A DNA stretch of 64,000 nucleotides from an uncultured Bacteroidales bacterium (GTDB lineage Bacteria; Bacteroidota; Bacteroidia; Bacteroidales; F082): the NCBI GenBank assembly GCA_937896505.1, contig CALBNP010000136.1:11338-75337 (forward strand), read 5' to 3'. Numbering within the stretch: the stretch's first letter is position 1; every line of letters starts with the position of its first letter. Position numbers and translations under genes: made by a program. The notes below the pieces were generated by a model. That model saw nothing but the letters and a program-made list of their open reading frames with translations. It ran no database searches and was not told where the DNA came from. Shown in pieces: positions 1 through 14,903 of this stretch.

Positions 1-342
1 GATGCCGATATGGAGGAGTTTTTTGACAATGTCATTGGCGTGACAGTTTATGAAAACAAACCTGTTCAGGAAGTCCGTCTAAGGATTTCGGAGAAGCGTT
101 ATCCTTATATAGAGACGAAGCCATTGCATTGGACGCAGACTGAATTAAAAGGAGAGTCAGGGAACGGATGGCGTGTGGTTCGGTTGCGTGTGAAGGTGAA
201 TAATGAACTTGAAGCGGCTATTCTGTATTTTGGTGATGATGTGGAGGTGCTTGCTCCTGAATCGTTAAGGAAGCAAATAGGAGAAAGAATAAAGTGTTTG
301 GCAAAAATGTATGGCTTTGCGGATACTTTGCAAAGTGAGTGA
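1..342 (+). CDS. WYL-domain transcriptional regulator, C-terminal part (5' end lies outside the window)
   Basis: The frame is open from base 1. The tail ...RLRISEKRYPYIETKPLHWTQ...WRVVRLRVKVNNELEAAILYFGDDVEVLAPESLRKQI resembles the WYL plus C-terminal extension region of YafY/BrxR/CapW-type regulators. Stop at 340-342. Confidence 0.55.
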   Translation, partial: DADMEEFFDNVIGVTVYENKPVQEVRLRISEKRYPYIETKPLHWTQTELKGESGNGWRVVRLRVKVNNELEAAILYFGDDVEVLAPESLRKQIGERIKCLAKMYGFADTLQSE

Positions 343-343
343 A

Positions 344-351
344 TACTTTTG
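344..351 (+). promoter_or_regulatory. Candidate Bacteroidota sigma-A -7 box (TACTTTTG) for the kinase-fusion gene
   Basis: Exact TAnnTTTG match directly after the WYL gene stop and 48 nt upstream of ATG 400. Confidence 0.45.
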
Positions 352-399
352 CAGCCGATTTAGGAATTGTTATTGTTTAACCAAATTAAGTTGTTGCTT

Positions 400-3300
400 A
401 TGACTAAGATTTTATCTTCACAGTTGGAACCGGAAATGATTATTGGCAGAGCCTTGAAGCAAGGCGAGACGTTGGTGCCTTTGAGAAACCTTATATCTAT
501 TATCCATAGTGAGGTTGAGGCCGAGGCCGTTGGTTATTTTATTCTGAATAGCTGTTACACCAAGAATTACAAGGAAAGCCTTTTGACATACGAGGATGAT
601 GTTGACGATAAAAAAAGGTTAGAGGCTTTGCGTCATGGGCCAGCAAAACGTGTCCCGTGGCGTAATAATATTTGTTTGGCAAGAATTGACACGAACTATT
701 ACCCAAGCGATGGAATTCATATCGTCAACATTGAGGACAATGAAGGCATTTTGATAGCTGGTTCGACAAAGTTTAATGAAGATGAGACTTTTGTTGGAAC
801 AGAGCCTGATGATGAATTGCCTGTTCATTGGGAAAGAAGAGGCACTTGTCCGAAACTTTACACCTATGGTGATGCTTTTGTGTTCCAAAATATCCGACCT
901 GATATTATCAATACTCAATATTTGCTTCGTGCCTTGACATCAGAAGAGGTGAATATGCAAGTGGAAAATATTTACAGACCTTCATTTGCAAATGGAACGG
1001 TTGGTTACACCGAAGAGGATTTCTTGTCTTTGGCGATTCCTGTACCGAGTCTGGAGGAACAAAAGTTTCTGGTGGATCTTGACTATAATCACATCAACAG
1101 TTCTGATTGTAAGATGGCTTTGAAGAAATATCTTCGGGTTAGAATGAAGAATGTTGAAATCATTGACGCCAAGATGGAATTGCTTTCCCTATTATATGGA
1201 TATGCGGGGGGATCTGATGAAAAGGTATCTAACAGTTTGCCGATTTTTTGTGATGGTATATTAACGGAAAGAGAAATGCTTGTAATAAAACATTTCTCAA
1301 AAGATGTCTTCGATTATATTTTCACTCCGTTAGTCGGTTCCAAAAATGAGTTTTTCGATGTTCCTAACGAATTATCTGATTTCATGTTCAATTTATTGAA
1401 TTTGAATAATGGTGGCAAAGAGGTCGTGTATAACCCATTTGTGAAATTTGGCTCACTAGCCCAGCATGATGCGATATTTGAAGGAGAAGAAATTGACGAA
1501 AAGGCTTGGGCGGTAGCCAAAGCAAGATTGTGTATTGCCGGTATAGAGAATAATTTGACATTGGGAAATCCATTGGATGATTATGGGAAGAGGTATAAGT
1601 ATATTCTAAGTATGCTTCCGTATGGAAGACAGGGAGAGGTGTCGTTGGAGTGCATTGTTTCAACCCTTTATGAAAAAATGGAATTAGGCGGCAGGATGGT
1701 TGTTGGTGTGCCATTTAGTTTCTTAAAAGGAACTGATAGACTTGGAATTAGACAAAGGCTATTGGCAGATGAGGCATTATGTGAAATTTATGTCTTACCA
1801 GAATATTTGATGAAACCAGCTACAGCAGTTCGTCTTGCCGTACTTGTTATAAATAAGGGAGGAACAAATTGTCATGGATACGATAAGGTGCGCATGATTG
1901 ATTTTTCATTTGCGAAAAAGATCAATTACGAGGGAAATGGGGCTAATGTTGACTTTGATATTAAAGCTGCTACAGAGGCCTATGAGCAATATTGTCTTGG
2001 ATTTGAAGACAGAAGTGGCTTAAGTGTGGTTGAAATTCCTTTTGCACAATTGTTGGATACGTCTTTTGAAAGAGAATATGTGATAAATCCTCTCGTCTAT
2101 TTTGCAACATCTCGGATTAAAAGAAAAAAGAAAGATGCAAATTTTGTCAGATTGGGAGATTTGGTCGAGCTGAATCATGAAAACAGGGCTACTGACCCTA
2201 TGAGAATCGTTGATTTAGCATGTTTTCCAAAAGAAGGTATAATTTTGGAAAGTGACTTTGAGAAATTGCCATTGACAAGTCCTGTAGGTCCTTGTAGAAT
2301 ATTGAATTGTGATGGTTTGTTGCTTTCAGGTGTAAAAAGGGGATTGAAATGTATTTGTTTCAAACGCAACGATAAGTTTCCTGTTGCTTATTCCAGTGAC
2401 CGAATTTTTTCTTTAAAGTTAAAGTCTAAAAATGTAGGTCTTGAATTTTTAGCATGTGAGTTAAACGGAGCTGATTATGTTAATGAACAGATAGATGCGC
2501 TGACGGCTGGTAGTGTTTTGCTAAGACTTCGTTCTTTTGAGTTGATGAATATTTTGGTCGATGTTCCTTCTCAGGAAGAACAGGTAAAAAGAGTTGAGTC
2601 ATATAAATCTGCCGAACTTGACAGATTGCTTGGAGAAAAGGGACGGGAAATCAAGATGCAGCATGAGGATTTTGTTCGTCGCGTGAGAAGCAGAAAACAT
2701 GCCATAGGCAATGTTATGGGTGAAGTTGTTCCGGCGTTTGATGGATTGGTTGACTGTTTCAATGAACATGGAGGCAAATTGACTGAATCAGATTTGGTTT
2801 GGAAGGGTTTTGACGACACAGTTGGCTCCGTGATTGCCAAGTTGCAGAAGGAGATCTGTAGAGTGGCTGAGATGGTTTCAAACATGACAAATGCGGTTGA
2901 TGTCGAATTTGGCACTCCTGATGAGTTTGTGGTAAAAGACTTAGTTGAGGATTATATCAGCAGCCATGTCTTCAACAGATGCACTGTCAGGATGAATTAT
3001 AACGAAGAAGCATTTGCTGAGGCTTTGGGTGAACGTAATGAGGTCGCTATAAAAGTTTGCAAGGATGATTTCAATAAAATCCTGGACAACATTGTGACCA
3101 ATGCGGTAAAGCATGGATTTACAGATGAAGGGAAGACATACTATATTGAGTTTGATGTCGCTCCGACTATAATTAATGGTTGTTTGGCTGTCGGAATATC
3201 TGTTCGCAATAATGGAAATCCATTGCCAAAAGGAATGACGGTAGAGAAGGTATTTCAAGAAGGCCAAAGTACTTCTGGCAGTTTTGGCATTGGAGGATGG

Positions 3301-3417
3301 TTCATTAAGAGTGCAGTTGAACAATTTGGAGGGGAGGTTGACATGGATTTGTTTGACCCTGAAGAAAATGATTTTTCGATTGAATATGTTTTGAAGTTTC
3401 CAATTAGTAATCTTTAA
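400..3417 (+). CDS. Fusion protein: HsdS-like TRD, degenerate N6-adenine-methyltransferase-like domain, second TRD, and histidine-kinase core (H-box plus HATPase_c)
   Basis: First ATG at 400; the ORF track starts at TTG 367. TRD-end signatures are AIPVPSLEEQ (1036-1062) and VDVPSQEEQ (2557-2583), the second TRD preceded by FVRLGDLVEL. MTase-like block: FFDVPNELSDFMFNLL, VYNPFVKFGS (1426-1455, where VYDPACGSG is expected), FEGEEID..AKARLCIAGIE, SMLPY (1609-1623, where NPPF/Y is expected), GGRMVVGVPFSFLKG...IYVLPEYLMKPATAVRLAVLVINKG. Kinase core: RSRKHAIGNVM (His codon 2698-2700), N-box NIVTNAVKHG (3100-3117), ISVRNNGNPLP, G2 box SFGIGGW (3286-3297). Confidence 0.8.
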   Translation: MTKILSSQLEPEMIIGRALKQGETLVPLRNLISIIHSEVEAEAVGYFILNSCYTKNYKESLLTYEDDVDDKKRLEALRHGPAKRVPWRNNICLARIDTNYYPSDGIHIVNIEDNEGILIAGSTKFNEDETFVGTEPDDELPVHWERRGTCPKLYTYGDAFVFQNIRPDIINTQYLLRALTSEEVNMQVENIYRPSFANGTVGYTEEDFLSLAIPVPSLEEQKFLVDLDYNHINSSDCKMALKKYLRVRMKNVEIIDAKMELLSLLYGYAGGSDEKVSNSLPIFCDGILTEREMLVIKHFSKDVFDYIFTPLVGSKNEFFDVPNELSDFMFNLLNLNNGGKEVVYNPFVKFGSLAQHDAIFEGEEIDEKAWAVAKARLCIAGIENNLTLGNPLDDYGKRYKYILSMLPYGRQGEVSLECIVSTLYEKMELGGRMVVGVPFSFLKGTDRLGIRQRLLADEALCEIYVLPEYLMKPATAVRLAVLVINKGGTNCHGYDKVRMIDFSFAKKINYEGNGANVDFDIKAATEAYEQYCLGFEDRSGLSVVEIPFAQLLDTSFEREYVINPLVYFATSRIKRKKKDANFVRLGDLVELNHENRATDPMRIVDLACFPKEGIILESDFEKLPLTSPVGPCRILNCDGLLLSGVKRGLKCICFKRNDKFPVAYSSDRIFSLKLKSKNVGLEFLACELNGADYVNEQIDALTAGSVLLRLRSFELMNILVDVPSQEEQVKRVESYKSAELDRLLGEKGREIKMQHEDFVRRVRSRKHAIGNVMGEVVPAFDGLVDCFNEHGGKLTESDLVWKGFDDTVGSVIAKLQKEICRVAEMVSNMTNAVDVEFGTPDEFVVKDLVEDYISSHVFNRCTVRMNYNEEAFAEALGERNEVAIKVCKDDFNKILDNIVTNAVKHGFTDEGKTYYIEFDVAPTIINGCLAVGISVRNNGNPLPKGMTVEKVFQEGQSTSGSFGIGGWFIKSAVEQFGGEVDMDLFDPEENDFSIEYVLKFPISNL

Positions 3418-3428
3418 CTTTAATAGAT

Positions 3429-4634
3429 ATGATGCATAAAGTCTTATGGATTGATGATGAATTAAATCAAGGCAGTTTTATCAGACAAGCAACCAAGTAT
3501 AATCTTGAAATAGAACAGGTTGAGTGTTATTTTGATGGCATCAACAAACTGAAAGGCGGAAAGACTGCTTGTAGTGCGGTTATTCTTGATGTGAACTGCA
3601 AGTATAAGTCGGATGAGGAAGTGACATCTGTTGAGGCAATTCGGGAGCATTTACATGAAATTACCGGATATTGTGAAAGTAAAGACGAAAGACTTGTTCC
3701 TTGGTTCGTTTATACGGCTGGCACAGGTGATGCTGAAGGTTATGTGAATAGTTTGCGAAAGAATAAACCGTGGGACGATGTCGCCTATTACAATAAGGGT
3801 GATGACTATAAGTTGCTTTTTGAGCATATTCAAAATGCAATTGAAAAGGTGCCTTTGAATATGATTCACAAAAAATATGAAGTTGTGTTCAGTGTCTGTC
3901 CAGACAAGAAAGATGAATTGGAGCGCGTGATGTTGGCCGTTGAAAACAACGATTTCAAGGATGCTTCGGCTTTCAATGATATGAGGAAAGTCTTGGGGTG
4001 GGTGAAAAAGAAGCTGGGGATTTTAGGTTTTCTTAGAGAAGATGTTAAGACTTTGCGTGATGTGTCTTATTTCATGAGGCAAATTAGCAAAAAAGATGCT
4101 CAATTTGTTCCGGAGTATATTAGCGGCTCTTTTTATTACGTAGAGGGAGCATCGCAGAATGGAAGCCATGGGGAAGATGATAAAGAGCCTGGCGCGGAGA
4201 ACAACTTGGTCGTTGATAGGGATGTTAAGACTGGTTGTGCGCCTTATTTGCTGAATGGCGTGTTTTATTCGTTGCTGACCTTGATTAATTGGTTGGGGAG
4301 TCTGTCGAATGAGGCTGGCGATGTTGAAGAAAGACGGAATAAAGTGCTGGCCATGAACATACCTTTCGACAAGAAGGATGGCAAAAAACAGGATGATACT
4401 GACCGTGAAGAAAGTGCGAGTAAGGCGATTGAGTTTCCTGAATACGAAGGGAAGGAATTTGTTTTAGAACAGGAAGATGGCATTTTGCATTGTGGGTATT
4501 GCTGTGTGCATGAAGCCCATGTGGGTAAAGTTGGAAAGGCTGTCCGTTTGGAAAATGTTGTTCCCAACACTTGGAAAAATAAATATGAGAAGTATAAATG
4601 CTTTGCAAAGAAAGTGACTGTTGTTGGAGAGTGA
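3429..4634 (+). CDS. REC-like response regulator with an uncharacterised ~260-aa output region
   Basis: Starts 11 nt after the kinase stop. N-terminus has VLWIDDE (D9, D10), AVILDVN (D54 as candidate phospho-acceptor), FVYTAG (T96) and YYNKG (K123), giving CheY-like spacing with one insertion. No motif recognised by eye from residue ~145 on. Cys/His-rich tail HCGYCCVHEAH...KYKCF. Confidence 0.6.
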   Translation: MMHKVLWIDDELNQGSFIRQATKYNLEIEQVECYFDGINKLKGGKTACSAVILDVNCKYKSDEEVTSVEAIREHLHEITGYCESKDERLVPWFVYTAGTGDAEGYVNSLRKNKPWDDVAYYNKGDDYKLLFEHIQNAIEKVPLNMIHKKYEVVFSVCPDKKDELERVMLAVENNDFKDASAFNDMRKVLGWVKKKLGILGFLREDVKTLRDVSYFMRQISKKDAQFVPEYISGSFYYVEGASQNGSHGEDDKEPGAENNLVVDRDVKTGCAPYLLNGVFYSLLTLINWLGSLSNEAGDVEERRNKVLAMNIPFDKKDGKKQDDTDREESASKAIEFPEYEGKEFVLEQEDGILHCGYCCVHEAHVGKVGKAVRLENVVPNTWKNKYEKYKCFAKKVTVVGE

Positions 4635-4798
4635 ATCGAATTATTGGGGAAAGGCATCTTGAACTTTTAGTCGGATTGGGGGCCGTACTGACGTGCTTTC
4701 GTGTTAACGATGGTTTTTTTTCGTGTGACTCAAAAATAAACAAATAAATATTTTTGGGTTGTAAGGTTGCTTTGTGTGATGTGATGTGGGAAAATGTT

Positions 4799-4806
4799 TA
4801 ATTTTG
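4799..4806 (+). promoter_or_regulatory. Candidate -7 box (TAATTTTG) for hsdM
   Basis: TAnnTTTG match 37 nt upstream of ATG 4844. A second match, TATTTTTG, lies at 4749-4756. Confidence 0.35.
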
Positions 4807-4843
4807 TGGGTTCTTTATTAATAGTTAATTCTAAATATATAGT

Positions 4844-6544
4844 ATGGCTAAGAAGGTGACTGACAAATCTATCAACATTGATAGTATTCTCTTCAATTGC
4901 CGCGACATTTTGCGGGCGGCGCGCAACTCGGGGTCTTTCTTTGAGAAGCGTGACATGATGCTTACTTTGGTGTTTCTCCGTTTCATTGGGGAGAAGTATG
5001 AGGATGGCGTTGCGAAACTGAAACAGCGTCTTAAAGATGAGGGGTTAGACCCAGAGGATGAGCAGATTGTGGCTGCTTTCTTCGAGGATGCTTCATTTGC
5101 GGATGGCACTTACAATTTGCCTCCCGAGGCGCGTTGGTCAACGATAATCAACACTCCGGCGCCAGGCTTGAATGTGGCTTTGGATGAGGCTTTGCGCAGT
5201 ATTGCCACTAACTCGAAACAACTGAAGGGATGCTTTGTGGAGGGTACTTTCATGACGCGCAATCTTGCCGCTAACGACATCAAGAAGCTTGTGGATGAGG
5301 TGAACAAGATTAGCCATAAGGCTTTTGGTGAAGAGAAGGACTTGATTGGCCATGTGTATGAATATTTCCTGAAGGCGTTTGCCGTGGAAGCCACCAAGGA
5401 GGAAGGTGAGTTTTATACGCCGCATGATGTTGTGCAGTTGATTGCCAATATGATTGAGCCTTTCGATGGAACTTTGTATGATCCTGCCTGTGGTTCGGGC
5501 GGTATGTTCATTCAAAGTGCCGACTTGGTGAAAGCACGCCAAGGCAATATCGAGAGGATTAACATTTACGGACAGGAGAAGGAGCCGGCGACATATCGTC
5601 TGGCGAAGATGAATCTTGCCTTGCGTGGCCTTAGCCATCATTTGGGCGAAGAGGCTGACTCGTCGTTTACCCACGACCTGCACAAAGGGCTTTACTTCAA
5701 CTATATCATGGCCAACCCGCCTTTTAACCTGAAGAGCTGGTATAACGACAATCTGCATGATGATGCACGCTGGGCTGATTATGCAACACCGCCAGAGAGC
5801 AATGCCAACTATGCCTGGATCCTGCACATGCTTTCGCACCTGAAGCCGAGTGATGGCGTTGCGGGTTTCCTGCTTGCCAATGGCGCTTTGAACGACGGCG
5901 ACACGCTAACCATACGGCAAAAGCTGATTGAAAACGACAAAGTGGAAGCCATCATCGTGTTGCCAAGAGAGCTTTTCTTTACAACCGATATTAGTGTGAC
6001 GCTTTGGATACTGAACCAAAACAAGAAGGGCGGCATGTACCATGAGCGCATGTTGCGCAACCGCGAGAAAGAAATACTCTTCATGGACTTGCGCCAATGG
6101 ACTGAGAACCCTGTGAAGGGCGAACAGAAGAAGAAGGTGCTTTTGAGTACCGAGCAGATTGAGAGAGCTGCCGAAATTTATCATACCTGGCAAGCCGAAG
6201 GGACGGATGGAGGCGATTATGCCGTGCCGGAGCTTTACCGCAGCGTGAAGTTTGACGAAATAGCGGCGAAAGGCTTTGCCTTGACGCCAAGCAAATACAT
6301 TGAGTTTGTTGACCACGACTTGGACATTGACTATGCCAAGGAGATGGCACGCATTCAAGAGGAAATGAGGCAGATACTTGCCGCTGAGAAGCAGTCGCAG
6401 AAAATGCTTGAAGAGGCTTTTAAGGGCATTGGCTATGAGATAGAGACCCGGAACACTGTGGTGGATTATGTTTGCGGCAACAGCCTCCCGCCAACCATGG
6501 CAGCGGAAGCGGAACATAAATTTCCTTGTTCAATGGATGAATAA
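4844..6544 (+). CDS. hsdM: Type I restriction-modification N6-adenine DNA methyltransferase subunit
   Basis: HsdM N-terminal helical domain (ILFNCRDILRAARNSGS..RDMMLTLVFLRFI), FYTPHDVV, motif I DPACGSGG (5480-5503), YGQEKEPATYRLAKMNLALRG, motif IV NPPF (5714-5725). The last 33 aa look foreign (see findings). Confidence 0.95.
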   Translation: MAKKVTDKSINIDSILFNCRDILRAARNSGSFFEKRDMMLTLVFLRFIGEKYEDGVAKLKQRLKDEGLDPEDEQIVAAFFEDASFADGTYNLPPEARWSTIINTPAPGLNVALDEALRSIATNSKQLKGCFVEGTFMTRNLAANDIKKLVDEVNKISHKAFGEEKDLIGHVYEYFLKAFAVEATKEEGEFYTPHDVVQLIANMIEPFDGTLYDPACGSGGMFIQSADLVKARQGNIERINIYGQEKEPATYRLAKMNLALRGLSHHLGEEADSSFTHDLHKGLYFNYIMANPPFNLKSWYNDNLHDDARWADYATPPESNANYAWILHMLSHLKPSDGVAGFLLANGALNDGDTLTIRQKLIENDKVEAIIVLPRELFFTTDISVTLWILNQNKKGGMYHERMLRNREKEILFMDLRQWTENPVKGEQKKKVLLSTEQIERAAEIYHTWQAEGTDGGDYAVPELYRSVKFDEIAAKGFALTPSKYIEFVDHDLDIDYAKEMARIQEEMRQILAAEKQSQKMLEEAFKGIGYEIETRNTVVDYVCGNSLPPTMAAEAEHKFPCSMDE

Positions 6545-6613
6545 TCTTAACGCTTTGAATGATAGGATTATATAAGGTGATAATCTTGCAACGGCAAATA
6601 AAGAAACATCAAA

Positions 6614-7474
6614 ATGGATTTGACTATGGAACCGAATATAGATATTAACCTTGCAAACGGTAACACCACATCTCCGCAGTTCAACGAAGTGCTGGAAATG
6701 ATTAAGGCAGCGAAGCAAAAGGTTTTTGCTGCCGTCAACACGTCATTGATAGACCTCTATTGGCAAATAGGTTGCTACATAAGCCAGCAAGTAGAAAAAT
6801 CCGGCTGGGGCAAGTCGGTAGTGGAGGAACTGGCCAACTACATACGTACTCAGGAGCCAAATTCCGAAGGTTTCTCCAAACAAAACCTATGGCGTATGAA
6901 GCAGTTTTACGAGACCTATAAAGATGCCGATGAAAAACTCTCAGCACTGCTGAGAGAAATTGCGCCAAAGGCAGAAAGCATTTTCCGCGACCACTACGTG
7001 ATGGAGTTTGTGGGCGAACAAAACGGCAAGCCTGAAAACACGTTCCGCAAAACTTTGATAGCCAGGATGCGTGATTTCATTCTCGAACTCGGAAAGGATT
7101 TCATCCATATTAAAGACGAATTTCATTTGCAGGTGGGGAACAGCGATTTTCGCATCGACCTGCTTTTCTACCATAGGGAATTGCAATGCTTGGTGGCTTT
7201 TGAGCTGAAAACAGAGAAGTTTAAGCCCGAACATTTGGGACAGCTCAACTTCTATCTCGAAGCGCTCGACCGCGATGTGAAGAAGCCCCACGAAAATCCC
7301 AGTATTGGGGTGCTGCTTTGCAAGAGCAAAGACGACGAAGTGGTGGAGTATGCACTTAGCCGCAGTCTTTCGCCAACAATGGTGGCCGAATACGAACTGA
7401 AACTGCCTGACAAGGCCTTGCTGCAACGCAAAATGCAGGAATTGGCAGAACTAATAGACGACGAACAAGAATAA
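6614..7474 (+). CDS. YhcG/DUF1016-family PD-(D/E)xK nuclease-like protein inserted between hsdM and hsdS
   Basis: SLIDLYWQIGCYI..WGKSVVEELANYI..GFSKQNLWRMKQFYETY in the N-terminal part, and FRIDLLFYHRELQCLVAFELKTEKFKPEHLGQLNFYLEALD..IGVLLCKSKDDEVVEYAL as the PD-(D/E)xK core. At 286 aa it looks shorter than I would expect for this family. Confidence 0.8.
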   Translation: MDLTMEPNIDINLANGNTTSPQFNEVLEMIKAAKQKVFAAVNTSLIDLYWQIGCYISQQVEKSGWGKSVVEELANYIRTQEPNSEGFSKQNLWRMKQFYETYKDADEKLSALLREIAPKAESIFRDHYVMEFVGEQNGKPENTFRKTLIARMRDFILELGKDFIHIKDEFHLQVGNSDFRIDLLFYHRELQCLVAFELKTEKFKPEHLGQLNFYLEALDRDVKKPHENPSIGVLLCKSKDDEVVEYALSRSLSPTMVAEYELKLPDKALLQRKMQELAELIDDEQE

Positions 7475-7486
7475 CACTTCAGAAGT

Positions 7487-8620
7487 ATGGCATTGAGTAA
7501 AATTAGATTAGGAGATATTGTAATTCCATATAAAAACAAATGTGGGAATCCCCATTTAACACCATACGAAGTCTCTGGCGTTAATAGAGATAAAGAGTTC
7601 TTCGAACCTTCTCACCAAGTCGGTGCAGATACTGAAAATTATCAAAACGTTCCACCCCATTTTTTCGCATGTAATTTGATGCATGTTGGTAGAGATGTTG
7701 TCTTGCCAATTGCATTTAATCATACGGATTCCATCAAACACGTAAGCCCTGCTTATACAGTCTTTTCCTTAAAAAAGAATGTTGGAATATTGGAAGAATA
7801 TTTCTTTTTATACTTAAAATCAGACGAACGTGATAGGTATTTTTGGTTCCATACAGATTCTTCAGTGCGGGATGGAATGTCTTGGGAAGATTTTTGCGAT
7901 ATTGAAATCGACCTTCCTTCGCTCGACATCCAGCAGAAGTACGTGGACGTATATAACGCGATGTTGGCCAACCAGCAGAACTACGAGCGCGGACTGGAGG
8001 ATTTGAAACTCGTGTGTCAAGGTCATTTTGATATTGCCAAAAAGGAACATTGTGTGAAGCTCGGTGAGATTATCGAAAAGGTTGACAAACGTAATAACGA
8101 TTTGGCCTATGGAAGTGAAGATGTTCGAGGAATAACAAATAAGAAACAATTCGATGATACGAAGGCTGATTTGATAGGAGTTGACATTTCCAAATTCAAA
8201 ATTATAGATAATGGCGTCTTCGCCTATAATAGTCGTACTGACGGTCGTGACATGCTTGTTGTTGCATTGAATAATACGCAGCAATCGTATATAGTAACTT
8301 TTAACTATAACGCATTTAGAATAAAAGAAGATTGCCGCAAGGTGATGAATTCAGACTATTTGTATTGTTATTTCTGCCGCCCTGAGTTTGATCGGTTGGT
8401 TAGGTTTAATTCTTGGGGCTCATCACAAGAACTACTTTCTTGGGATAATCTTTGTGATATTTCGGTTCCTTGTCCACCGTATGAGGAACAGATATCTATT
8501 GCTAATGCCTTTGATGTATACAAAGAAAGAATGTCTGTAAACGAGCAATTGAAAACACAGATAAAGGACATTTGTCCGATATTGATAAAAGGGAGTATTG
8601 AGGAAGGGAGAAAGAATTGA
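7487..8620 (+). CDS. hsdS: Type I restriction-modification specificity subunit with two TRDs
   Basis: IRLGDIV start, central conserved helix region IEIDLPSLDIQQKYVDVYNAMLANQQNYERGLEDLKL, second TRD ending ISVPCPPYEEQISIANAFDVYKERMSVNEQLK. Confidence 0.9.
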   Translation: MALSKIRLGDIVIPYKNKCGNPHLTPYEVSGVNRDKEFFEPSHQVGADTENYQNVPPHFFACNLMHVGRDVVLPIAFNHTDSIKHVSPAYTVFSLKKNVGILEEYFFLYLKSDERDRYFWFHTDSSVRDGMSWEDFCDIEIDLPSLDIQQKYVDVYNAMLANQQNYERGLEDLKLVCQGHFDIAKKEHCVKLGEIIEKVDKRNNDLAYGSEDVRGITNKKQFDDTKADLIGVDISKFKIIDNGVFAYNSRTDGRDMLVVALNNTQQSYIVTFNYNAFRIKEDCRKVMNSDYLYCYFCRPEFDRLVRFNSWGSSQELLSWDNLCDISVPCPPYEEQISIANAFDVYKERMSVNEQLKTQIKDICPILIKGSIEEGRKN

Positions 8621-8639
8621 AAAATAAAGGAGGTTGGTT

Positions 8640-11024
8640 ATGAAAGTTACTAAAATTAAAACGATTAAGAATCTTGCAGTATTTAAGGATTTTCAATGGG
8701 ATGACTGCGTTAAAGACAAGGATGGAAGAATCCAAACTTTTCAAGACATAAATATCATATATGGCAGAAATTATTCAGGAAAAACAACTTTGTCAAGAAT
8801 ATTTCGAGCATTTGAAACTGGGAAAATATCTGATAAATATGCAAATCCCGAATTCCAATTAGAATTCAAGGATGGAGGATGTGTTGGCCAAACTCAAATT
8901 AACAACAAGCAAGATTTCCGAGTCTTTAACTCTGATTTTATTGATGAAAATTTATCAATCCTTCGAGATTCAGATAGTGGTAAAATTCAGCCTTTCGCGA
9001 TATTAGGAGATGGTAATGCCACTTTAGCATCAGAGATAGAAAGCCTTCAAAATGAATTAGGCAAAAATGCAGAAGAAGAGAAAACTGGTTTATATAAAGA
9101 ACTGGGCGATAAAGAAAAAGCATACAAAGACGCTGACAAAAAGTATAACGACGCTGACAAATCGTTAAGCAAACGCCTGACTGATAAAGCCAGCCAAATG
9201 AAGAATCAAAATGGCAACTTTGTTTCTCCTAATTATGACAAAACAAAATTAAAGTCAGATATAGAACAACTTTCTAGCTTTACTTTTAAAACAGAACAAG
9301 AAATAACAGACTTAAAAAAACTGTTGCAAGAAGAAACAAAAGCGAGTATTCGAAAAGCCTCCGCTTCGCTACAGTATGACACTTTAGTTTCAGAAACAAA
9401 AATTTTGTTAGCCCGCAAAGTTGAAAGTGCAGATAAAATTCGAGAACTTGTAGAAAACTCTTTGTTGAATAACTGGGTAAAAGAAGGACTTGATTTACAT
9501 AAAGAAAGAAATACGTGTGCTTTCTGTGGTCAACCTCTTTCATCTGATAGATTGGAAATGTTGCAACATCATTTTAATGAAGAAATGGATGCTCTTCAAA
9601 ATGATTTGAGAACAGAGATAACAAAGATTGAGGACGAAAAGACGAATGCCAAGAAAATAGTTGAAAACATAAGTGAAACCAATTTATATGTTAAGTTTCA
9701 AAATGATGCAAAAGCAAGTTTGGAAAGCATTAAAAAGATAATTTCTAATTATTGTCAAGAGTTGGATAAGCTATCTACTCAATTAGAAAATAAAAAGAAA
9801 AATGTGTTTCATGAACTTGTTTTTGTGGAACCAGATGATTTTACACAACAGATTTTAGATGCACTTACGGATTTTAACAAAATTGTAGAGGACGCAATTA
9901 CATATGGGAATAATTTACAGAAGGAAAAGGATGAAGCAAAAAATACACTTCGGCTCAATGTGGTCAAACAATTTGTTGACGACATTAAATATTCGGATTT
10001 ATGTAAAGAAATAGACAATCTAAAAAAAGAAGCGGATCAGAAAAAAACTGAATTTGACAATTTTAAGAATGATGTTAATCAAAAAGAAAAAGAACTTGCA
10101 ATTAAGAAATCACAGTTGAATGACGAAGAAAAAGGTGCAATCAAAGTCAATGAATATTTAACAAATTTCTTTGGTCACGAATTTCTACAATTAGTTCCAA
10201 TAAAGGAAGAATCGGAAAACGCAGACGCAAAGCACTATCGTTTCGAAATCCAAAGAAATGGCAGTAAAGCGTATAATTTAAGTGAAGGAGAATGCAGGTT
10301 GGTTGCTTTCTCTTATTTTATGGCTAAACTCAACGACACAGAAACCGCAGGCAAAAAGCCATTAATTTGGATAGATGACCCGATTTGCTCTTTAGATGCA
10401 AACCATGTATTCTTTGTATACTCTTTGATTTCTTCAGAAATTGCAATAAAAGATAATTTTGAACAACTTTTCATCACAACTCATAACTTGGATTTTCTGA
10501 AGTATCTGAAAAGACTAAAAAGCAAATATGTTGATAACGACAGAGATCGTTCTAAAGGATATTTCATTATAGAAAGAAAAAATGATGATACGAATTTGAT
10601 GGTTATGCCAAAATATATGAAGGATTTCGTCACAGAGTTCAATTATTTATTCGATTCTATATATAAATGTGCGAATTCAGAATTAAGTGAAGAAACGTAT
10701 CCTCTATTCTATAATTTCAGCAATAATGCTCGCAAATTTTTAGAAATATACCTATTTTACAAATATCCAGATGATAGTGAAGATAGAGTAAAGCAAGAAA
10801 GCTTTTTTGGAGAAAAGATACCCGTTTTTTTGAATGAGAGGGTTACTAATGAATATTCTCATTTAAAAGGCGATATAGAACGAGCATCAAATCCTGTTGA
10901 ATATCCTGTTGAAACGATGAAAAAAGATGCACAAATGATTCTTGAATGTATACAACATCATGATCAAAAGCAATATGATGCCCTCCTTAATAGTATAGGT
11001 GTTAGTGTTTCACCAACAGAATAA
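8640..11024 (+). CDS. rloC: RloC-like anticodon nuclease (AAA_13/ABC-type ATPase head with coiled-coil CxxC hook and PrrC-like C-terminal nuclease region)
   Basis: ATG at 8640 (ORF track starts at TTG 8634). Walker A GRNYSGKT (8763-8786). A ~370-aa Lys/Glu-rich coiled-coil insert carries CAFC (9516-9527). ABC signature-like LSEGECRL, Walker B LIWIDDPICSLD, FITTHNLDF. C-terminal R-x3-E (ARKFLE, 10731-10745) plus NEYSH (His 10860-10862), matching the PrrC/RloC Arg-Glu-His triad pattern. Sits between hsdS and hsdR. Confidence 0.75.
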   Translation: MKVTKIKTIKNLAVFKDFQWDDCVKDKDGRIQTFQDINIIYGRNYSGKTTLSRIFRAFETGKISDKYANPEFQLEFKDGGCVGQTQINNKQDFRVFNSDFIDENLSILRDSDSGKIQPFAILGDGNATLASEIESLQNELGKNAEEEKTGLYKELGDKEKAYKDADKKYNDADKSLSKRLTDKASQMKNQNGNFVSPNYDKTKLKSDIEQLSSFTFKTEQEITDLKKLLQEETKASIRKASASLQYDTLVSETKILLARKVESADKIRELVENSLLNNWVKEGLDLHKERNTCAFCGQPLSSDRLEMLQHHFNEEMDALQNDLRTEITKIEDEKTNAKKIVENISETNLYVKFQNDAKASLESIKKIISNYCQELDKLSTQLENKKKNVFHELVFVEPDDFTQQILDALTDFNKIVEDAITYGNNLQKEKDEAKNTLRLNVVKQFVDDIKYSDLCKEIDNLKKEADQKKTEFDNFKNDVNQKEKELAIKKSQLNDEEKGAIKVNEYLTNFFGHEFLQLVPIKEESENADAKHYRFEIQRNGSKAYNLSEGECRLVAFSYFMAKLNDTETAGKKPLIWIDDPICSLDANHVFFVYSLISSEIAIKDNFEQLFITTHNLDFLKYLKRLKSKYVDNDRDRSKGYFIIERKNDDTNLMVMPKYMKDFVTEFNYLFDSIYKCANSELSEETYPLFYNFSNNARKFLEIYLFYKYPDDSEDRVKQESFFGEKIPVFLNERVTNEYSHLKGDIERASNPVEYPVETMKKDAQMILECIQHHDQKQYDALLNSIGVSVSPTE

Positions 11025-11035
11025 TAATTTTAACC

Positions 11036-14000
11036 ATGTCCAAACTCACCAATTACAACGGCCGTTACTGCGAAAGCGAGTTCGAGAATGCCTTCATTGC
11101 TTTCTTGGAGCAAGAAGGTTGGCACTATACATTAGGCAACAAGATAAAGCGCACCAACAAGACGGATGTGCTCATCGAGGAAGACTTCAAAGAGTTCATT
11201 GCCAACATGAATGATGACTTGACGGGCGAGGAAATCGACCGCCTGTTTGATATGGTTAGGCTTGTGGGTGCTGAGACTGATTTCGCCACGCTGCATAAGG
11301 TGTATTGCTGGATGGTGAACGGGGTGCAGTTCGTGCCAGAGAACGGACAGGCGCGAATGGTCAGCTTGATTGACTTTGACCCGGAGCATCCTGAAAAGAA
11401 CATTTTCAGGGCGGTGAACCAATTCACCGTGGAATATACCAACAATGGCCAGAAAGAGAACCGCCGTCCCGATGTGCTGCTGTATGTCAACGGTATGCCG
11501 CTTTGCATCGTCGAGCTGAAAAACCCTGCCGATGCCAATGCGACCGTGTTTGACGCATGGGAGCAGATTACGATTCGTTACTGGCGCGACATTCCGCATC
11601 TTTTGCACTATTGCCCATTGGCGTGCATCAGCGATGGCGTTCACACCCGATTGGGCACGGTGAAGACCCCCTACGAGCATTTCTATGCCTGGCGTCGTGT
11701 GAATGAAGGTGATAAGGTGACGACAATGCCGTTTGATGAGACGAAGAAGATGATACAGGGCGTTTATTCGCCAGCACGTTTCCTGGAGATTTTCCGTGAC
11801 TACATCTATTTCCGTGATGCAGAATATGACGGCGATGAGTTTGAGTTGGTTTGCCGTTATCCACAATTCTTCGCCACGAAGCTGCTGAAGCAAAGCGTCA
11901 TCGACTCGGTACAGCAAGGCAACGGGAAGGGAGGAACCTACTTTGGCGCTACGGGATGCGGGAAAACCTATACGATGGCTTTCCTTGCCCGCCAATTGGC
12001 GCTTCGCTGCACTGACATTATTGGCTCGCCAACCATCATCATGATTGTTGACCGCGACGACTTGCAGGAACAAGGTTCGAAACTCTTCACGAAGAGTTCG
12101 GAGTTTCTGAATTTGGGAGCGGTTGAAGTAGTGCCGACGCGCAAAGATTTGAGAAATGAACTGAAGAAAAGGGAAAGCGGCGGCTTCTACATCTGCACCA
12201 TTCAGAAATTTTGCGACCGAAGCGATGATGCCATGGGACTCATCAACGAGCGGAGGAACATCATCTGTTTTTCGGATGAGGCACACCGCACGCAACTGGA
12301 ACATAGCAAGCAAATCAGATTCTGCAAAGATGCTGATGAGAATATGAAAGCCGTGGTTTCGAAGCCCTACGCTAAGGTGTTGAAAGAGGCGTTTCCCCAT
12401 GCCACTTTCGTCGGCTTTACGGGCACGCCTATCGCAGAGACCTATCAGACTTTTGGCGAAGAGATAGACCGCTACACCATGGACCAGGCAGTGGCCGATG
12501 AAATCACAGTGCCGATAAAATACCATCCGCGCATCGCGAAGGTTCTTTTGGATCCAGAGAAGGTGAAAGAGATAGAGCGTTATTACGGCAAATGCGCCGA
12601 CGAAGGTGCAGATGAAAAGGAAATCAATGCCAGCAAAATGGCGATGAGTTCGATGGAGGTGATATTAGGGGAGCCATCGCGCTTGGCGCGCTTGGCGGAT
12701 GACATTCATTCGCATTATCTTTCAGCCTGTGAAAACGACCCTGAACGCATCCAAAAAGCAATGGTGGTATGCTCCAACAGGACTATCGCCTATAACCTTC
12801 TTTGCTTATTCAGAGAGAAATATCCTGAGTGGTTTGTGGAGAAAAAGACACCAGATGGCGTTGCTGTGACTGATGAAGAACTGAAGAAACTGAAGCCTAT
12901 GCCCTTTATGGCTATGGTGGCCAGCGTGGGAAGCAATGACCCGGCAGAGATGTATAACTATCTTGGCGGTGTCAAGAACAATGCCAGAAATAAGGACTAT
13001 GGAGAAGCCTTTAAGGCGGAAAAGTCCAATTTCCGTATTGTCGTGGTGGTGGATATGTGGATAACAGGTTTTGATGTTGAGCCATTGACCTACATGTATA
13101 ATGACAAGCCGTTGCAGAAGCATCTGCTCATCCAAACCATTAGCCGCGTGAACCGCAAGTACCCGGGCAAAAAATACGGCATGATCGTTGACTATATTGG
13201 CATCCGTGACAATATGCGTGTGGCCGTGAAGATGTATGGCGGCGACAACAGCGTTGCGCCTACGGCGGATGATGTTGAGCAAGGCACGATTATTTTCAGG
13301 GAGGAGCTGGAGATATTGAAGAGAATGTTTGCGGGTTATGACCTCGCGCCATTCCTGAACCCAGATACCGACCCGATTGACAGATATACCCTGCTGGCCA
13401 AGGCAGCCGAATTTGTGTTTTCTTCAACAGAAGAAATGAATTCGGAAGGTGAAAATGGCAAGGGACCTAAAAAGGTGACATTCAAGACATATTTCCTGCA
13501 ATCGGTCAAACGATTGCGGGTTGCTTACGACATTTGTCAGCCGTCGGGAGAGCTTGGTGAGGAAGAATCAGCACTGGCACAATGTTTCATGGCTATTGCA
13601 GGATTTGTCCGCAAGATGAATGGAACGAGCGATATAGATGCAGAGACAATGAACCGTAAGGTTGCGGTCATGGTTGAAGAGGCGTTGAAATACAATAAGG
13701 TTGAGAGCGTTCTCGAAGAGGGACAAACGGAAGACATCATTAGTCCGGAGTATTATGAATCGCTTGAAGATGTTCCGATGCCCGCATCGAAGCTGGAACT
13801 GCTTATCAAGTTGCTGAAGAAACAGATTCGGGAGTATGGCCGCACCAATGGCGTGGAGGCGAAGAAGTTCCAGGAGCTGTTGGAACAGACCATCAAACAA
13901 TACCACGAAAGGCGTAAGCACCTCAGTGCAAGTGAGGCAGGAAAGACACAGGAAGAAGCCGTGGAAGACATCGTGAAGAATGCCACCGAGCAAGCCTTGT

Positions 14001-14365
14001 CGATTCTGAAGTCACTGAACGAAAGCAAAGAGAGTTTCCGCAAATTAGGTCTTACCTTTGAGGAGAAATCGTTTTACGACATTTTGATGTCACTTCGAGA
14101 CCAGTATGATTTTGAGTATGGCGAAGACAAACTTGTTGACGGGGTTATGGTGAACGACAAATGCCGGATTCTGGCGAAGAAGGTGAAAGAGATTATCGAT
14201 ACGAAGTCGTCGTTTGCCGATTGGCTGAACAATCAGAATGTCAGAAACTCGCTGAAGTTGGATATTAAGATTTGCTTGGTGAAGAATGGCTATCCACCGC
14301 AATATAGTCCTGAGGTTTTCAACAAGGTGATGGAGCAGGTGGAGAATTTTGAGGAGAATGGGTGA
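11036..14365 (+). CDS. hsdR: Type I restriction enzyme R subunit (endonuclease/translocase)
   Basis: N-terminal PD-(D/E)xK (RPDVLLYVNGMPLCIVELKNP), Walker A GATGCGKT (11945-11968), DEAHR (12275-12289), FTGTP, helicase C motifs (VDMWITGFDVEPL, QTISRVNR), C-terminal HsdR tail (SFYDILMSL...). Confidence 0.95.
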   Translation: MSKLTNYNGRYCESEFENAFIAFLEQEGWHYTLGNKIKRTNKTDVLIEEDFKEFIANMNDDLTGEEIDRLFDMVRLVGAETDFATLHKVYCWMVNGVQFVPENGQARMVSLIDFDPEHPEKNIFRAVNQFTVEYTNNGQKENRRPDVLLYVNGMPLCIVELKNPADANATVFDAWEQITIRYWRDIPHLLHYCPLACISDGVHTRLGTVKTPYEHFYAWRRVNEGDKVTTMPFDETKKMIQGVYSPARFLEIFRDYIYFRDAEYDGDEFELVCRYPQFFATKLLKQSVIDSVQQGNGKGGTYFGATGCGKTYTMAFLARQLALRCTDIIGSPTIIMIVDRDDLQEQGSKLFTKSSEFLNLGAVEVVPTRKDLRNELKKRESGGFYICTIQKFCDRSDDAMGLINERRNIICFSDEAHRTQLEHSKQIRFCKDADENMKAVVSKPYAKVLKEAFPHATFVGFTGTPIAETYQTFGEEIDRYTMDQAVADEITVPIKYHPRIAKVLLDPEKVKEIERYYGKCADEGADEKEINASKMAMSSMEVILGEPSRLARLADDIHSHYLSACENDPERIQKAMVVCSNRTIAYNLLCLFREKYPEWFVEKKTPDGVAVTDEELKKLKPMPFMAMVASVGSNDPAEMYNYLGGVKNNARNKDYGEAFKAEKSNFRIVVVVDMWITGFDVEPLTYMYNDKPLQKHLLIQTISRVNRKYPGKKYGMIVDYIGIRDNMRVAVKMYGGDNSVAPTADDVEQGTIIFREELEILKRMFAGYDLAPFLNPDTDPIDRYTLLAKAAEFVFSSTEEMNSEGENGKGPKKVTFKTYFLQSVKRLRVAYDICQPSGELGEEESALAQCFMAIAGFVRKMNGTSDIDAETMNRKVAVMVEEALKYNKVESVLEEGQTEDIISPEYYESLEDVPMPASKLELLIKLLKKQIREYGRTNGVEAKKFQELLEQTIKQYHERRKHLSASEAGKTQEEAVEDIVKNATEQALSILKSLNESKESFRKLGLTFEEKSFYDILMSLRDQYDFEYGEDKLVDGVMVNDKCRILAKKVKEIIDTKSSFADWLNNQNVRNSLKLDIKICLVKNGYPPQYSPEVFNKVMEQVENFEENG

Positions 14366-14596: not shown

Positions 14597-14809
14597 ATGG
14601 TTAATGAAAATGTTATATTTCAGGTACTTGCAGAGCAAAAGGAAGAAACAAAGAATTACGACACTCAAAAATGGGTTTCCCGCAAAGAGGAATCGTTGTT
14701 TGAGTTCGACAGCAAGTTGGCACTTGCGCAACAAACGTGGATATGTGGAAAGTCTGTTGGAAGCCATATAATTTCGCGAATTATTTGTTTGGATTTTGTC
14801 AGAAAATAG
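14597..14809 (+). pseudogene. Possible 5' fragment of an AAA_14/DUF4143-type ATPase gene
   Basis: The 70-aa ORF MVNENVIFQVLAEQKEE...SRKEESLFEFDSKLALAQQTWICGKSVG resembles the N-terminus and degenerate Walker A (cf. LLLRGARQTGKST in the intact gene at 14904). The frame then runs into the 33-bp repeats and stops. Confidence 0.3.
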
Positions 14810-14873
14810 CAAATTATTTGTTTGGATTTTGTCAGAAAATGGCGAATTATTTGTTTGGATTTTGTCAAAAAAC
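14779..14873. repeat. Three tandem 33-bp repeats (AATTATTTGTTTGGATTTTGTCAGAAAAT plus a 4-nt linker)
   Basis: Copies start at 14779, 14812 and 14845. Copies 1 and 2 share an identical 29-nt core; copy 3 differs at 2 positions near its 3' end. The array abuts the promoter of the ATPase gene. Confidence 0.9.
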
Positions 14874-14874
14874 G

Positions 14875-14882
14875 TATTTTTG
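14875..14882 (+). promoter_or_regulatory. Candidate -7 box (TATTTTTG), with a -33-like TTTG at 14850-14853 inside repeat copy 3
   Basis: TAnnTTTG lies 21 nt upstream of ATG 14904. The TTTG sits 21 nt upstream of the -7 box. Confidence 0.5.
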
Positions 14883-14903
14883 CAAAATCAAAATCAAGTA
14901 ATT

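Follow-up and report, generated by a model that had tools for sequence, protein, structure and literature searches.

A histidine kinase with a restriction-modification-derived input module and its divergent receiver partner: a candidate defensive two-component system of Bacteroidales

Introduction

His-Asp signaling has been described as an immune system in Detocs (DtcA-DtcB-DtcC), in which a receiver (REC)-effector protein replaces the transcription factor (10.1101/2023.01.24.525353), and restriction-modification (R-M) and two-component parts have been reported together in Ambrosia (AbrR-AbrA-AbrB-AbrC-AbrD), a phage defense system of Pseudomonadales, whose authors considered the presence of both in one cluster to be previously undescribed and found the REC Asp to be needed for defense (bioRxiv 10.1101/2025.09.30.679545). 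Here we analyze a 64,000-nucleotide (nt) stretch from an uncultured Bacteroidales bacterium (contig CALBNP010000136.1 of assembly GCA_937896505.1, positions 11,338 to 75,337 of the forward strand; hereafter the window), near the start of which a sensor histidine kinase of 1005 amino acids (aa), carrying two HsdS-type target-recognition domains (TRDs) and an HsdM-like methyltransferase domain, is followed by a gene for a REC-containing partner. An earlier reading of the letters alone, made without database searches (the sequence-only reading), had proposed that a DNA reader of R-M origin serves here as the sensor of a two-component pathway. That proposal is supported, in that every refuting condition it named and that lends itself to computation turned out in its favor. 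Our analysis indicates that a WYL regulator, the sensor kinase, and a REC-effector probably form a self-contained defensive two-component system with an R-M-derived sensor.

The fusion architecture is real and conserved, and it seems not to have been described before. Full-text literature searches returned no description of a methyltransferase/HsdS-histidine kinase fusion, of a REC-HEPN protein, or of a WYL regulator combined with a histidine kinase, in line with the statement of the sequence-only reading that no such family was known to it; the DefensePredictor paper names HATPase and REC in a figure legend only, without detail.

Results

Architecture of the sensor and its family

The sensor open reading frame (ORF) lies on the + strand and is open from position 367 or 400 to position 3417; translation from the ATG at 400 yields the 1005-aa protein. 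A protein from another sample, P0001, is 99% identical to the window sensor and has the same start Met. The sensor has no transmembrane segment (maximum 19-residue hydropathy, 1.3), and its domains, including a region resembling a dimerization and histidine phosphotransfer (DHp) domain, are arranged as follows.

400..3417, + strand: sensor histidine kinase, 1005 aa (TRD1 / degenerate HsdM-like domain / TRD2 / coiled coil and His helix / HATPase_c)
457..1077, + strand: TRD1 (about residues 20-226), with C-terminal IPVPSLEEQ; Pfam Methylase_S at residues 153-222, PADLOC Specificity_I at 57-226
1267..2079, + strand: HsdM-like gamma-class methyltransferase domain (about residues 290-560) with eroded motifs; Pfam N6_Mtase at residues 432-542, PADLOC mad2 and MTase_I
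2134..2604, + strand: TRD2 (about residues 579-735), from VRLGDL to VDVPSQEEQ; PADLOC Specificity_I at residues 579-756, HsdS structures at E 3e-16 with the family profile
2617..2979, + strand: coiled-coil / DHp-like region with the putative H-box R-K-H767-A-I-G-N (His codon 2698-2700), placed by the conservation of H767
3037..3399, + strand: HATPase_c domain with N-box DNIVTNAVKHGF (N901), G1-like RNNGNP, and G2 GIGGW; Pfam HATPase_c at residues 890-983

The motifs from which the sequence-only reading had assembled two HsdS-type TRDs bracketing an HsdM-like domain were all recovered in place, and Pfam, PADLOC, and PDB comparisons support that layout. IPVPSLEEQ occupies residues 213-221 (nt 1036-1062), VRLGDL starts at residue 583, and VDVPSQEEQ occupies residues 720-728 (nt 2557-2583), while the PADLOC methyltransferase model mad2 matches residues 364-503. 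In the C-terminal part, NAVKHG corresponds to residues 901-906, RNNGNP carries N937, N938, and G939, and GIGGW spans residues 963-967 (G963 and G965); the HATPase_c domain is C-terminal, and the Pfam scan found nothing beyond it. Taken singly, the window sensor scores barely over the Pfam gathering score for each of Methylase_S, N6_Mtase, and HATPase_c (for N6_Mtase, 21.6 bits against a cut-off of 20.4), and its best PDB matches are the histidine kinases WalK/YycG.

An exhaustive HMMER search with clustering at 50% identity found relatives of the sensor in 1219 representative clusters at E<=1e-3 and in 771 at E<=1e-10; an earlier word-indexed search had given two relatives. All family members with a named organism belong to the Bacteroidales, and their public annotation is limited to "N-6 DNA methylase" or "signal transduction histidine kinase." Because most members are 780-860 aa long and align only to query residues of about 300-1002, the common layout of the family is an HsdM-like domain, one TRD, and a kinase. 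TRD2 is the one found throughout the family, and TRD1 is an extra N-terminal domain that is shared over its full length only with P0123, which aligns to the window sensor over residues 1-1003 at 37% identity and has the same gene order, and in part with the sensor of locus L029 (S_TRD1 match). When a profile of 56 members was compared with the PDB, it matched HsdM at E 2e-50 and HsdS at about 3e-16, in co-linear order, and the histidine kinases YycG, VicK, HK853, VanS, and ThkA at 1e-10 to 1e-5. Among the same 56 members, Pfam found HATPase_c in 55, N6_Mtase in 53 (best, 1.8e-38), and Methylase_S in 22.

Conservation of the kinase core and decay of the methyltransferase motifs

Column conservation was taken from an alignment of 137 relatives, in which the sole invariant columns are H767, N901, N937, G939, G963, and G965. 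H767 is present in 137/137 sequences, is preceded by Lys (K766) in 111/137, and is followed by Ala, Thr, or Asn at H+1 and by Gln or Asn at H+4; it lies 134 residues before the N-box residue N901 and is the predicted autophosphorylation site. Where Glu or Asp would be expected directly after a phospho-His, the family thus has Ala, Thr, or Asn. The N-box and the G2 box are of canonical form and do not vary; the G1 box is an invariant N-N-G (nt 3208-3216), compared with the canonical DxGxG. To judge from these columns, the core may possibly represent a distinct kinase subclass.

The methyltransferase motifs show a different pattern. In the window sensor, motif I reads NPFVKFGS (residues 345-352, nt 1432-1455), with Lys349 in place of a Gly that is present in 124/137 relatives, and so departs from the xPxxGxG loop that binds S-adenosylmethionine (SAM). 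The Glu of motif II is kept in 119/137 relatives and is retained here as Glu364, and motif III, which has Asp or Asn in 117/137, has Asn390. Motif IV reads MLPY (residues 405-408, nt 1612-1623), outside the (D/N)PP(Y/F/W) pattern. Across the 137 sequences this motif is (D/N)PP-aromatic in 19, (S/T)PP-aromatic in 45, xPP-aromatic in 22, and unrecognizable in 51, giving a P-P-aromatic motif of any type in 86/137, and the window sensor falls in the most eroded class (11/137). At the far end stand the minimal sensors of L011/L034 (5131-6468) and L035 (7689-9035), which consist of a TRD and a kinase in 445-448 aa without a methyltransferase domain and still have the partner gene next downstream.

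Because motifs I and IV both fail, the window sensor is predicted to lie outside the functional N6A-methyltransferase family. The kinase residues are invariant while motif IV decays, and for this reason selection is seen to keep the kinase rather than methyl transfer. The sequence-only reading had described the catalytic motifs as dead-looking; that description fits the window copy, with its Lys349 and MLPY, but does not extend to the family, which on its motifs is better described as a graded series running from NPPF, as in the sensor of L013, to no motif at all.

These two patterns bear on a simpler explanation, namely that the protein is an ordinary Type I/IIG-like methyltransferase-specificity (M-S) enzyme carrying a nonkinase GHKL ATPase of the MORC/MutL kind, or else a decaying pseudogene. 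Relatives are publicly annotated as N-6 DNA methylases, and MORC-type GHKL ATPases are known beside R-M systems, but the window sensor has lost both motif IV and the Gly of motif I while its kinase residues do not vary, and the protein is not an intact M-S fusion of the usual sort, as the sequence-only reading had held. We considered and rejected a MORC/MutL-type GHKL identity on the basis of the invariant upstream His, the co-evolving REC partner (see below), the terminal position of HATPase_c, where MORC/MutL-type ATPases would continue with an S5-fold transducer domain, and the PDB matches, all of which are histidine kinases; MORC, MutL, GyrB, and Hsp90 are absent among the matches of the 56-member profile to the sensor C terminus. 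The preference of the sequence-only reading for a kinase core over a MORC-type GHKL was therefore borne out. Decay into a pseudogene is contradicted by the intact 1005-aa ORF, by the 99% identical copy in another sample, and by a homologue that is 37% identical over its full length and whose locus has the same order of genes. We regard this explanation as largely refuted and in all its forms as very improbable.

Pairing with the partner and genomic context

Loci were gathered by exact-protein look-up, by partner- and sensor-baited scans of GTDB species genomes, and from one match in a phage collection; baiting with a single protein brought up no close relative among reference genomes, and the narrow alignments used as baits in the locus scans bias the sample toward Bacteroidales. 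Named hosts are Prevotella, Segatella copri, Xylanibacter brevis ATCC 19188 (L019), Paludibacteraceae, Rikenellaceae, and Bacteroides.

Pairing of the two genes is obligate in this sample: the partner gene directly follows the sensor on the same strand in 28/28 nonredundant loci, with gaps of -20 to +53 bp (measured for 25 sensors). A full-length HTH-WYL-WCX regulator (HTH, helix-turn-helix) lies directly upstream of the sensor in 25/28 loci and forms the first gene of a three-gene cassette. In the window, the start of the stretch cuts this gene.

10..342, + strand: WYL-family regulator, C-terminal end (WCX), cut by the window start; cassette gene 1 (Pfam WCX, E 5.6e-17; PADLOC WYL, 2e-13)

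BrxR/CapW-type WYL regulators head diverse defense operons, including those of Type I R-M systems, and respond to single-stranded DNA or DNA damage (PMC9122601, PMC11662680). Together with the frequent presence of Type I R-M, DUF1016, or TOTE genes, these counts answer in the affirmative the question raised by the sequence-only reading of whether the fusion and its REC partner recur together in a conserved neighborhood.

Kinase-core and partner-REC identities correlate at r=0.93 over 28 pairs (Mantel p ~0.0005), above the correlations of the kinase core with its own TRD (r=0.77) and its own methyltransferase domain (r=0.83). This co-divergence matches that of cognate pairs, and simple co-inheritance adds to the correlation.

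A stand-alone HsdM adjoins the module in 12/28 loci and a DUF1016 nuclease in 8/28, and further neighbors include TOTE-type conflict genes and integrases. In locus L047, the three-gene cassette stands alone between panB/upp and argS, and since its neighbors there are housekeeping genes, the cassette is independent of any R-M system; no R-M system lies near it in L006-L008 and L036-L038 either. Two loci have arrangements of their own. In L017 (7244-14643; a Prevotella metagenome-assembled genome), two sensor-partner pairs stand in tandem (912 aa + 309 aa and 871 aa + 309 aa) with a single WYL gene ahead of them. In L045 (MT835483.1, "UNVERIFIED: Bacteriophage sp.," human feces; 4524-12028), genes for WYL, sensor (790 aa), partner (453 aa), HsdM, and HsdS follow in the usual order, and this record may represent a phage or mobile element that carries the module or a misbinned bacterial contig. 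A plasmid search for the module gave no match, and the phage-collection search gave L045 alone.

This context also bears on whether the system has to do with defense at all. It might instead monitor the state of the cell's own DNA, such as its methylation, replication, uptake, or the transfer of integrative and conjugative elements, and adjust physiology accordingly, with its location in islands being incidental. No defense phenotype is known for it, the PADLOC result consists of generic R-M parts only, and DNA methylation regulates genes in many bacteria (PMC10810217). A role of this kind sits poorly with the consistent neighborhood of WYL/WCX, R-M, DUF1016, TOTE, and integrase genes, and with the patchy, island-like distribution, the tandem pairs, and the fast turnover of sensor domains, all typical of conflict systems; we consider it improbable to a degree exceeded only by the pseudogene or ordinary-enzyme explanation above.

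The partner protein

Three parts can be distinguished in the partner.

3429..4634, + strand: partner protein, 401 aa (receiver, helical output, and small beta domain), starting 11 nt past the sensor stop
3429..3848, + strand: divergent REC domain, residues 1-140, with predicted phospho-acceptor D54 (codon 3588-3590) and D9/D10, T96, K123
3852..4358, + strand: all-helical output domain, residues 142-310, with invariant H247 (codon 4167-4169) and W288
4455..4622, + strand: small C-terminal beta domain, residues 343-398, from model secondary structure and alignment A1

The partner falls in no family of Pfam, NCBIfam, or PADLOC. Its homologues number more than 130, and AlphaFold modeled it with a confidence (pLDDT) of 90. 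In 117 aligned partner sequences D9, D10, D54, and K123 do not vary and position 96 holds Thr or Ser, which upholds the receiver assignment made in the sequence-only reading with D54 as its acceptor; the acceptor set is also intact in 32 partners translated from retrieved loci. Pfam Response_reg gave no match at E<=1 in the window partner and 10 homologues. The modeled REC domain has the (beta-alpha)5 fold and superposes on the stand-alone REC domains of PmrA, ArlR, and CheY at TM scores of 0.6-0.74, and also on PorX and RssB (Foldseek). Residues 1-140 are thus, as judged from the model, a real but divergent receiver domain.

The helical domain that follows was modeled separately with a pLDDT of 91. 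Besides H247 and W288 it has nearly invariant R186, G245, S246, and P272, and it carries a catalytic-looking set of an invariant His with a near-invariant Arg and a Ser. A profile of this domain matched only designed helical bundles among PDB sequences, and a word-indexed search with the same profile returned 4 proteins only, all of partner length and without any Pfam domain. The structures that superpose best on it are the HEPN toxin HpeT (TM 0.36/0.46) and MtlR, and Csm6 appears at rank 21 among the Foldseek matches of the whole partner model; none of these is significant, and the domain can be called HEPN-like only weakly. The C-terminal beta domain is found in long partners (about 365-400 aa) and is missing from short ones (about 290-330 aa).

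Homologues of the partner in which the REC acceptor residues are intact also occur in L020-L024, L026, and L027 (at about 10000-11100; Paludibacteraceae and other Bacteroidales genomes), where neither the sensor nor any other histidine kinase lies within 10 kb. These loci adjoin a 1030-aa multi-AAA+ ATPase, a low-molecular-weight phosphotyrosine phosphatase, a calcineurin-like phosphoesterase, and an ATPase_2/DUF234 protein.

Response regulators are for the most part transcription factors, and the partner could be one whose DNA-binding domain has gone unrecognized and that induces the neighboring R-M or defense genes, or the cassette itself, when the sensor perceives foreign DNA. The module is often located immediately upstream of hsdM, and in Ambrosia the two-component part controls transcription (10.1101/2025.09.30.679545). 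A regulator of this kind would nonetheless be hard to reconcile with several features of the partner: Foldseek found no HTH or winged HTH (wHTH) similarity for the output domain although the model is confident; the conserved His, Arg, Ser, and Trp look catalytic rather than DNA binding; the cassette stands alone amid housekeeping genes in L047; partner homologues occur in unrelated conflict-type loci; and a dedicated WYL regulator is already there. We therefore judge transcriptional control by the partner to be unlikely. An effector role is favored over that of a transcription factor because the cassette is autonomous, no HTH is seen, a separate regulator is present, and partner homologues occur without a kinase.

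The surrounding island in the window

Downstream of the partner lies a Type I R-M system with two further genes, followed by an ATPase gene that closes the island.

4844..14365, + strand: complete Type I R-M system into which two genes are inserted (Pfam); context of the module and not its core
4844-6544, + strand: hsdM (Pfam)
6614-7474, + strand: DUF1016/YhcG PD-(D/E)XK nuclease, between hsdM and hsdS (Pfam)
7487-8620, + strand: hsdS (Pfam)
8634-11024, + strand: AAA_13 RloC/PrrC-like ATPase, between hsdS and hsdR (Pfam, E 6e-135)
11036-14365, + strand: hsdR (Pfam)
14796-16277, + strand: AAA_14/DUF4143 ATPase, closing the island; then an aminotransferase and a six-S1-domain rpsA-like gene

The sequence-only reading had placed the sensor at the head of a Type I R-M/RloC island, and Pfam indeed recognizes hsdM, DUF1016, hsdS, the AAA_13 RloC/PrrC-like gene, and hsdR in this region. 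The AAA_13 gene is a second, independent guard-type gene of the island. A DUF1016 gene is also found beside the module in L006, L009, L012, L013, L016, L019, and L032, sometimes between the WYL and sensor genes.

Base composition across window positions 1-14365 is a mosaic, with G+C fractions of 0.38-0.41 for sensor and partner, 0.47-0.50 for hsdM/DUF1016, 0.31-0.35 for the 3' part of hsdS and the RloC-like gene, and 0.48-0.50 for hsdR; this mosaic suggests that cassettes were inserted into an older hsd operon. At other loci (L009, L010, L012, L013, L025, and L030), the stand-alone HsdM-like genes that follow the partner often encode 682-1069 aa, compared with about 500-570 aa for a typical HsdM, and these long neighbors likely carry extra fused domains. 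Scans of the window turned up neither a tRNA nor an Rfam family, and they gave no notable terminator or promoter signal that would bear on the module.

Discussion

Our findings lead us to propose a working mechanism for this candidate defensive two-component system. The M-S-like module would engage a nucleic acid ligand, most simply invading DNA, and methylation should not be needed for this step, given that the family can dispense with the catalytic motif and the window copy has lost it. The helix after the TRD, a homologue of the helix in the HsdS conserved region, could continue into the His767 helix and relay a conformational change along the coiled coil that turns on autophosphorylation at His767, from which the phosphoryl group would pass to Asp54 of the partner. 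The phosphorylated REC domain may then activate the helical output domain, probably via dimerization, and the likeliest output would be a toxic or growth-arresting activity, possibly that of a HEPN-like RNase. The WYL regulator is expected to hold the operon repressed until infection or DNA damage occurs.

In its most specific form, this reading amounts to "restriction without a nuclease": the DNA-recognition hardware of a Type I R-M enzyme, freed from catalysis, would sense foreign DNA or a phage anti-restriction DNA mimic and signal through a phosphorelay to a hitherto undescribed REC-fused effector. The cassette would then be an autonomous, WYL-gated system of the abortive-infection type that is widespread in gut and rumen Bacteroidales, with an output fold that is new, helical, and possibly HEPN derived. 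We put this full version forward tentatively, as one that is more likely to be wrong in some part than to be right throughout.

Several observations weigh against the proposed defensive system or against individual steps of its mechanism. An invariant Asn in the G1 box stands at the position of the adenine-binding Asp of canonical kinases, and none of the 56 members matched a HisKA, HisKA_2, HisKA_3, HWE, or His_kinase model of Pfam at E<=0.01; because of this replacement and the lack of a HisKA-type match in the His region, kinase activity is not guaranteed. As for the effector, the output domain has no significant Foldseek match in the PDB or BFVD (best E ~0.9), and DUF4145, a HEPN-superfamily family linked to R-M systems (PMC3710099), was matched by 4/30 partners with a best E of 0.0019 and by 0/10 further partners. 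The Arg of the HEPN Rx4-6H motif is absent, with S/T/C, Q/N, and N/E/D at positions -4 to -6 relative to H247, and the near-invariant R186 stands 61 residues before that His; HEPN families with a conserved H but no R are on record (PMC3710099). PADLOC models recognize only generic R-M parts in sensor and partner and no defense system, consistent with the expectation of the sequence-only reading that the locus would be unassigned. The loci are all from Bacteroidales and mostly from metagenome-assembled genomes, with some short contigs, and the context statistics are not phylogenetically independent. Finally, no HsdS-like TRD swapping or mosaic hypervariability was seen in 8 close pairs, a small sample in which TRD identity tracks that of the methyltransferase and kinase domains (for example, 0.93-0.96 versus 0.90-0.97), and these close relatives without swapped TRDs weaken the idea of a rapidly evolving sequence specificity.

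What the sensor reads is central to the proposed mechanism. Its homology to M-S enzymes leads us to expect that the input module binds DNA in the manner of an M2S1 methyltransferase, and motifs I-III together with the P-P-aromatic platform, retained by most of the family, would fit SAM binding and base inspection without transfer. A specificity shared with the neighboring Type I system was considered and rejected, as the sensor TRDs and the adjacent HsdS share 23% identity (E 0.003); the sensor methyltransferase domain and the adjacent HsdM gave a short match only. Across loci, a stand-alone HsdM adjoins 8/10 sensors with an xPP-aromatic motif IV versus 4/18 eroded ones (Fisher p=0.005, with kinship ignored and some contigs short), and because the adjacent HsdM tracks the state of motif IV in this way, the data suggest two putative forms of the sensor, an R-M-embedded form that is more enzyme-like and an autonomous, eroded one. 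The window sensor is unusual in being fully eroded yet lying inside a complete Type I system.

Unrelated TRDs, the lack of swapping, and the association of HsdM with motif IV therefore keep alive a different role for the same module. PrrC/RloC and PARIS respond to inhibition of restriction, and by analogy the eroded M-S mimic could act as a guard or decoy that is bound by phage anti-restriction proteins (Ocr/ArdA-type DNA mimics or Stp-like peptides) and then switches on the kinase and effector. Such a decoy would account for a scaffold of HsdM and HsdS that is retained while methyltransferase catalysis is dispensable, for TRDs whose rate of evolution matches that of the remaining sensor domains and that stay unswapped, as expected if specificity is irrelevant, for the frequent position at the head of Type I R-M operons (12/28 loci), and for the guard-type AAA_13 RloC/PrrC-like ATPase beside the sensor in the window. 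It is harder to square with cassettes that have no R-M system nearby (L047, L006-L008, and L036-L038) and with TRDs unrelated to the adjacent HsdS, and we know of no anti-restriction trigger for Bacteroidales. We consider a decoy unlikely, about as unlikely as transcriptional control by the partner, and favor direct sensing of nucleic acid by a defensive two-component system.

If that reading is true, R-M recognition machinery has been rewired from cutting DNA to signaling, and a direct physical link exists from nucleic acid recognition to a two-component phosphorelay; to our knowledge, work on such phosphorelays has so far dealt almost exclusively with signals from small molecules or the envelope. 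The module would be the third, architecturally distinct defensive two-component system after Detocs and Ambrosia and the first in Bacteroidales, an order that is dominant in gut and rumen and for which, as far as we know, few defense systems have been characterized. The natural series from NPPF through SPPF/TPPF and a dead motif to the loss of the methyltransferase domain offers a view of what a methyltransferase fold does once methylation stops. The output domain of the partner, with its confidently modeled but unmatched fold and invariant His, is a candidate for a new class of effector, and a DNA-gated kinase with swappable TRDs, if true, would make an attractive scaffold for biosensors.

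Comparison with known systems

Detocs was named as a precedent with an unrelated sensor in the sequence-only reading, and this is correct, but the closest published precedent is Ambrosia, which that reading did not mention. Ambrosia resembles the present module in that a transcriptional regulator heads a single cluster in which an N6-adenine methyltransferase occurs together with a HATPase sensor kinase and a REC protein. It differs in consisting of five separate genes with an unfused methyltransferase and kinase and no reported TRD, whereas here the M-S module forms the kinase input and is often dead; in its REC-wHTH transcription regulator, compared with a REC and helical domain without wHTH likeness; and in its HNH nuclease, XRE regulator, and gammaproteobacterial hosts, compared with a cassette of Bacteroidales that has a WYL regulator and no nuclease, HNH or other. 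The two are set apart here by gene content as described.

With Detocs the module shares the principle that a sensor kinase phosphorylates a REC protein with an effector in place of the DNA-binding domain, the effectors of Detocs being swappable. Detocs itself uses a TPR-sensing DtcA, the PNP ATP-nucleosidase DtcC, and the buffer REC protein DtcB; in the present cassette Pfam found no TPR or PNP domain, there is no second REC-only gene, and PADLOC gave no Detocs match.

The input module compares most closely with Type I HsdM2-HsdS1 and the Type IIG/IIB M-S fusions, with which it shares co-linear homology, the order of a TRD followed by a conserved helix, and mostly kept motifs I-III. In the sensor family, unlike those enzymes, motif IV is mostly noncanonical or lost and the TRDs are not mosaic, and its C terminus is a histidine kinase where M-S fusions end or carry a nuclease. 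PrrC and RloC are likewise second-line modules embedded in Type I hsd operons, and one such gene is present in the window island; they are ABC-type ATPase-nuclease fusions checked by the R-M complex and have no homology to the present module, which would work by a His-Asp phosphorelay. HEPN effectors such as those of the DUF4145 and Csm6 kinds resemble the partner in that an all-helical domain containing a conserved His comes after a Rossmann-like sensor domain, none of these likenesses being significant. Within defensive or R-M-linked two-component signaling, the architecture described here is best classed as a variant.

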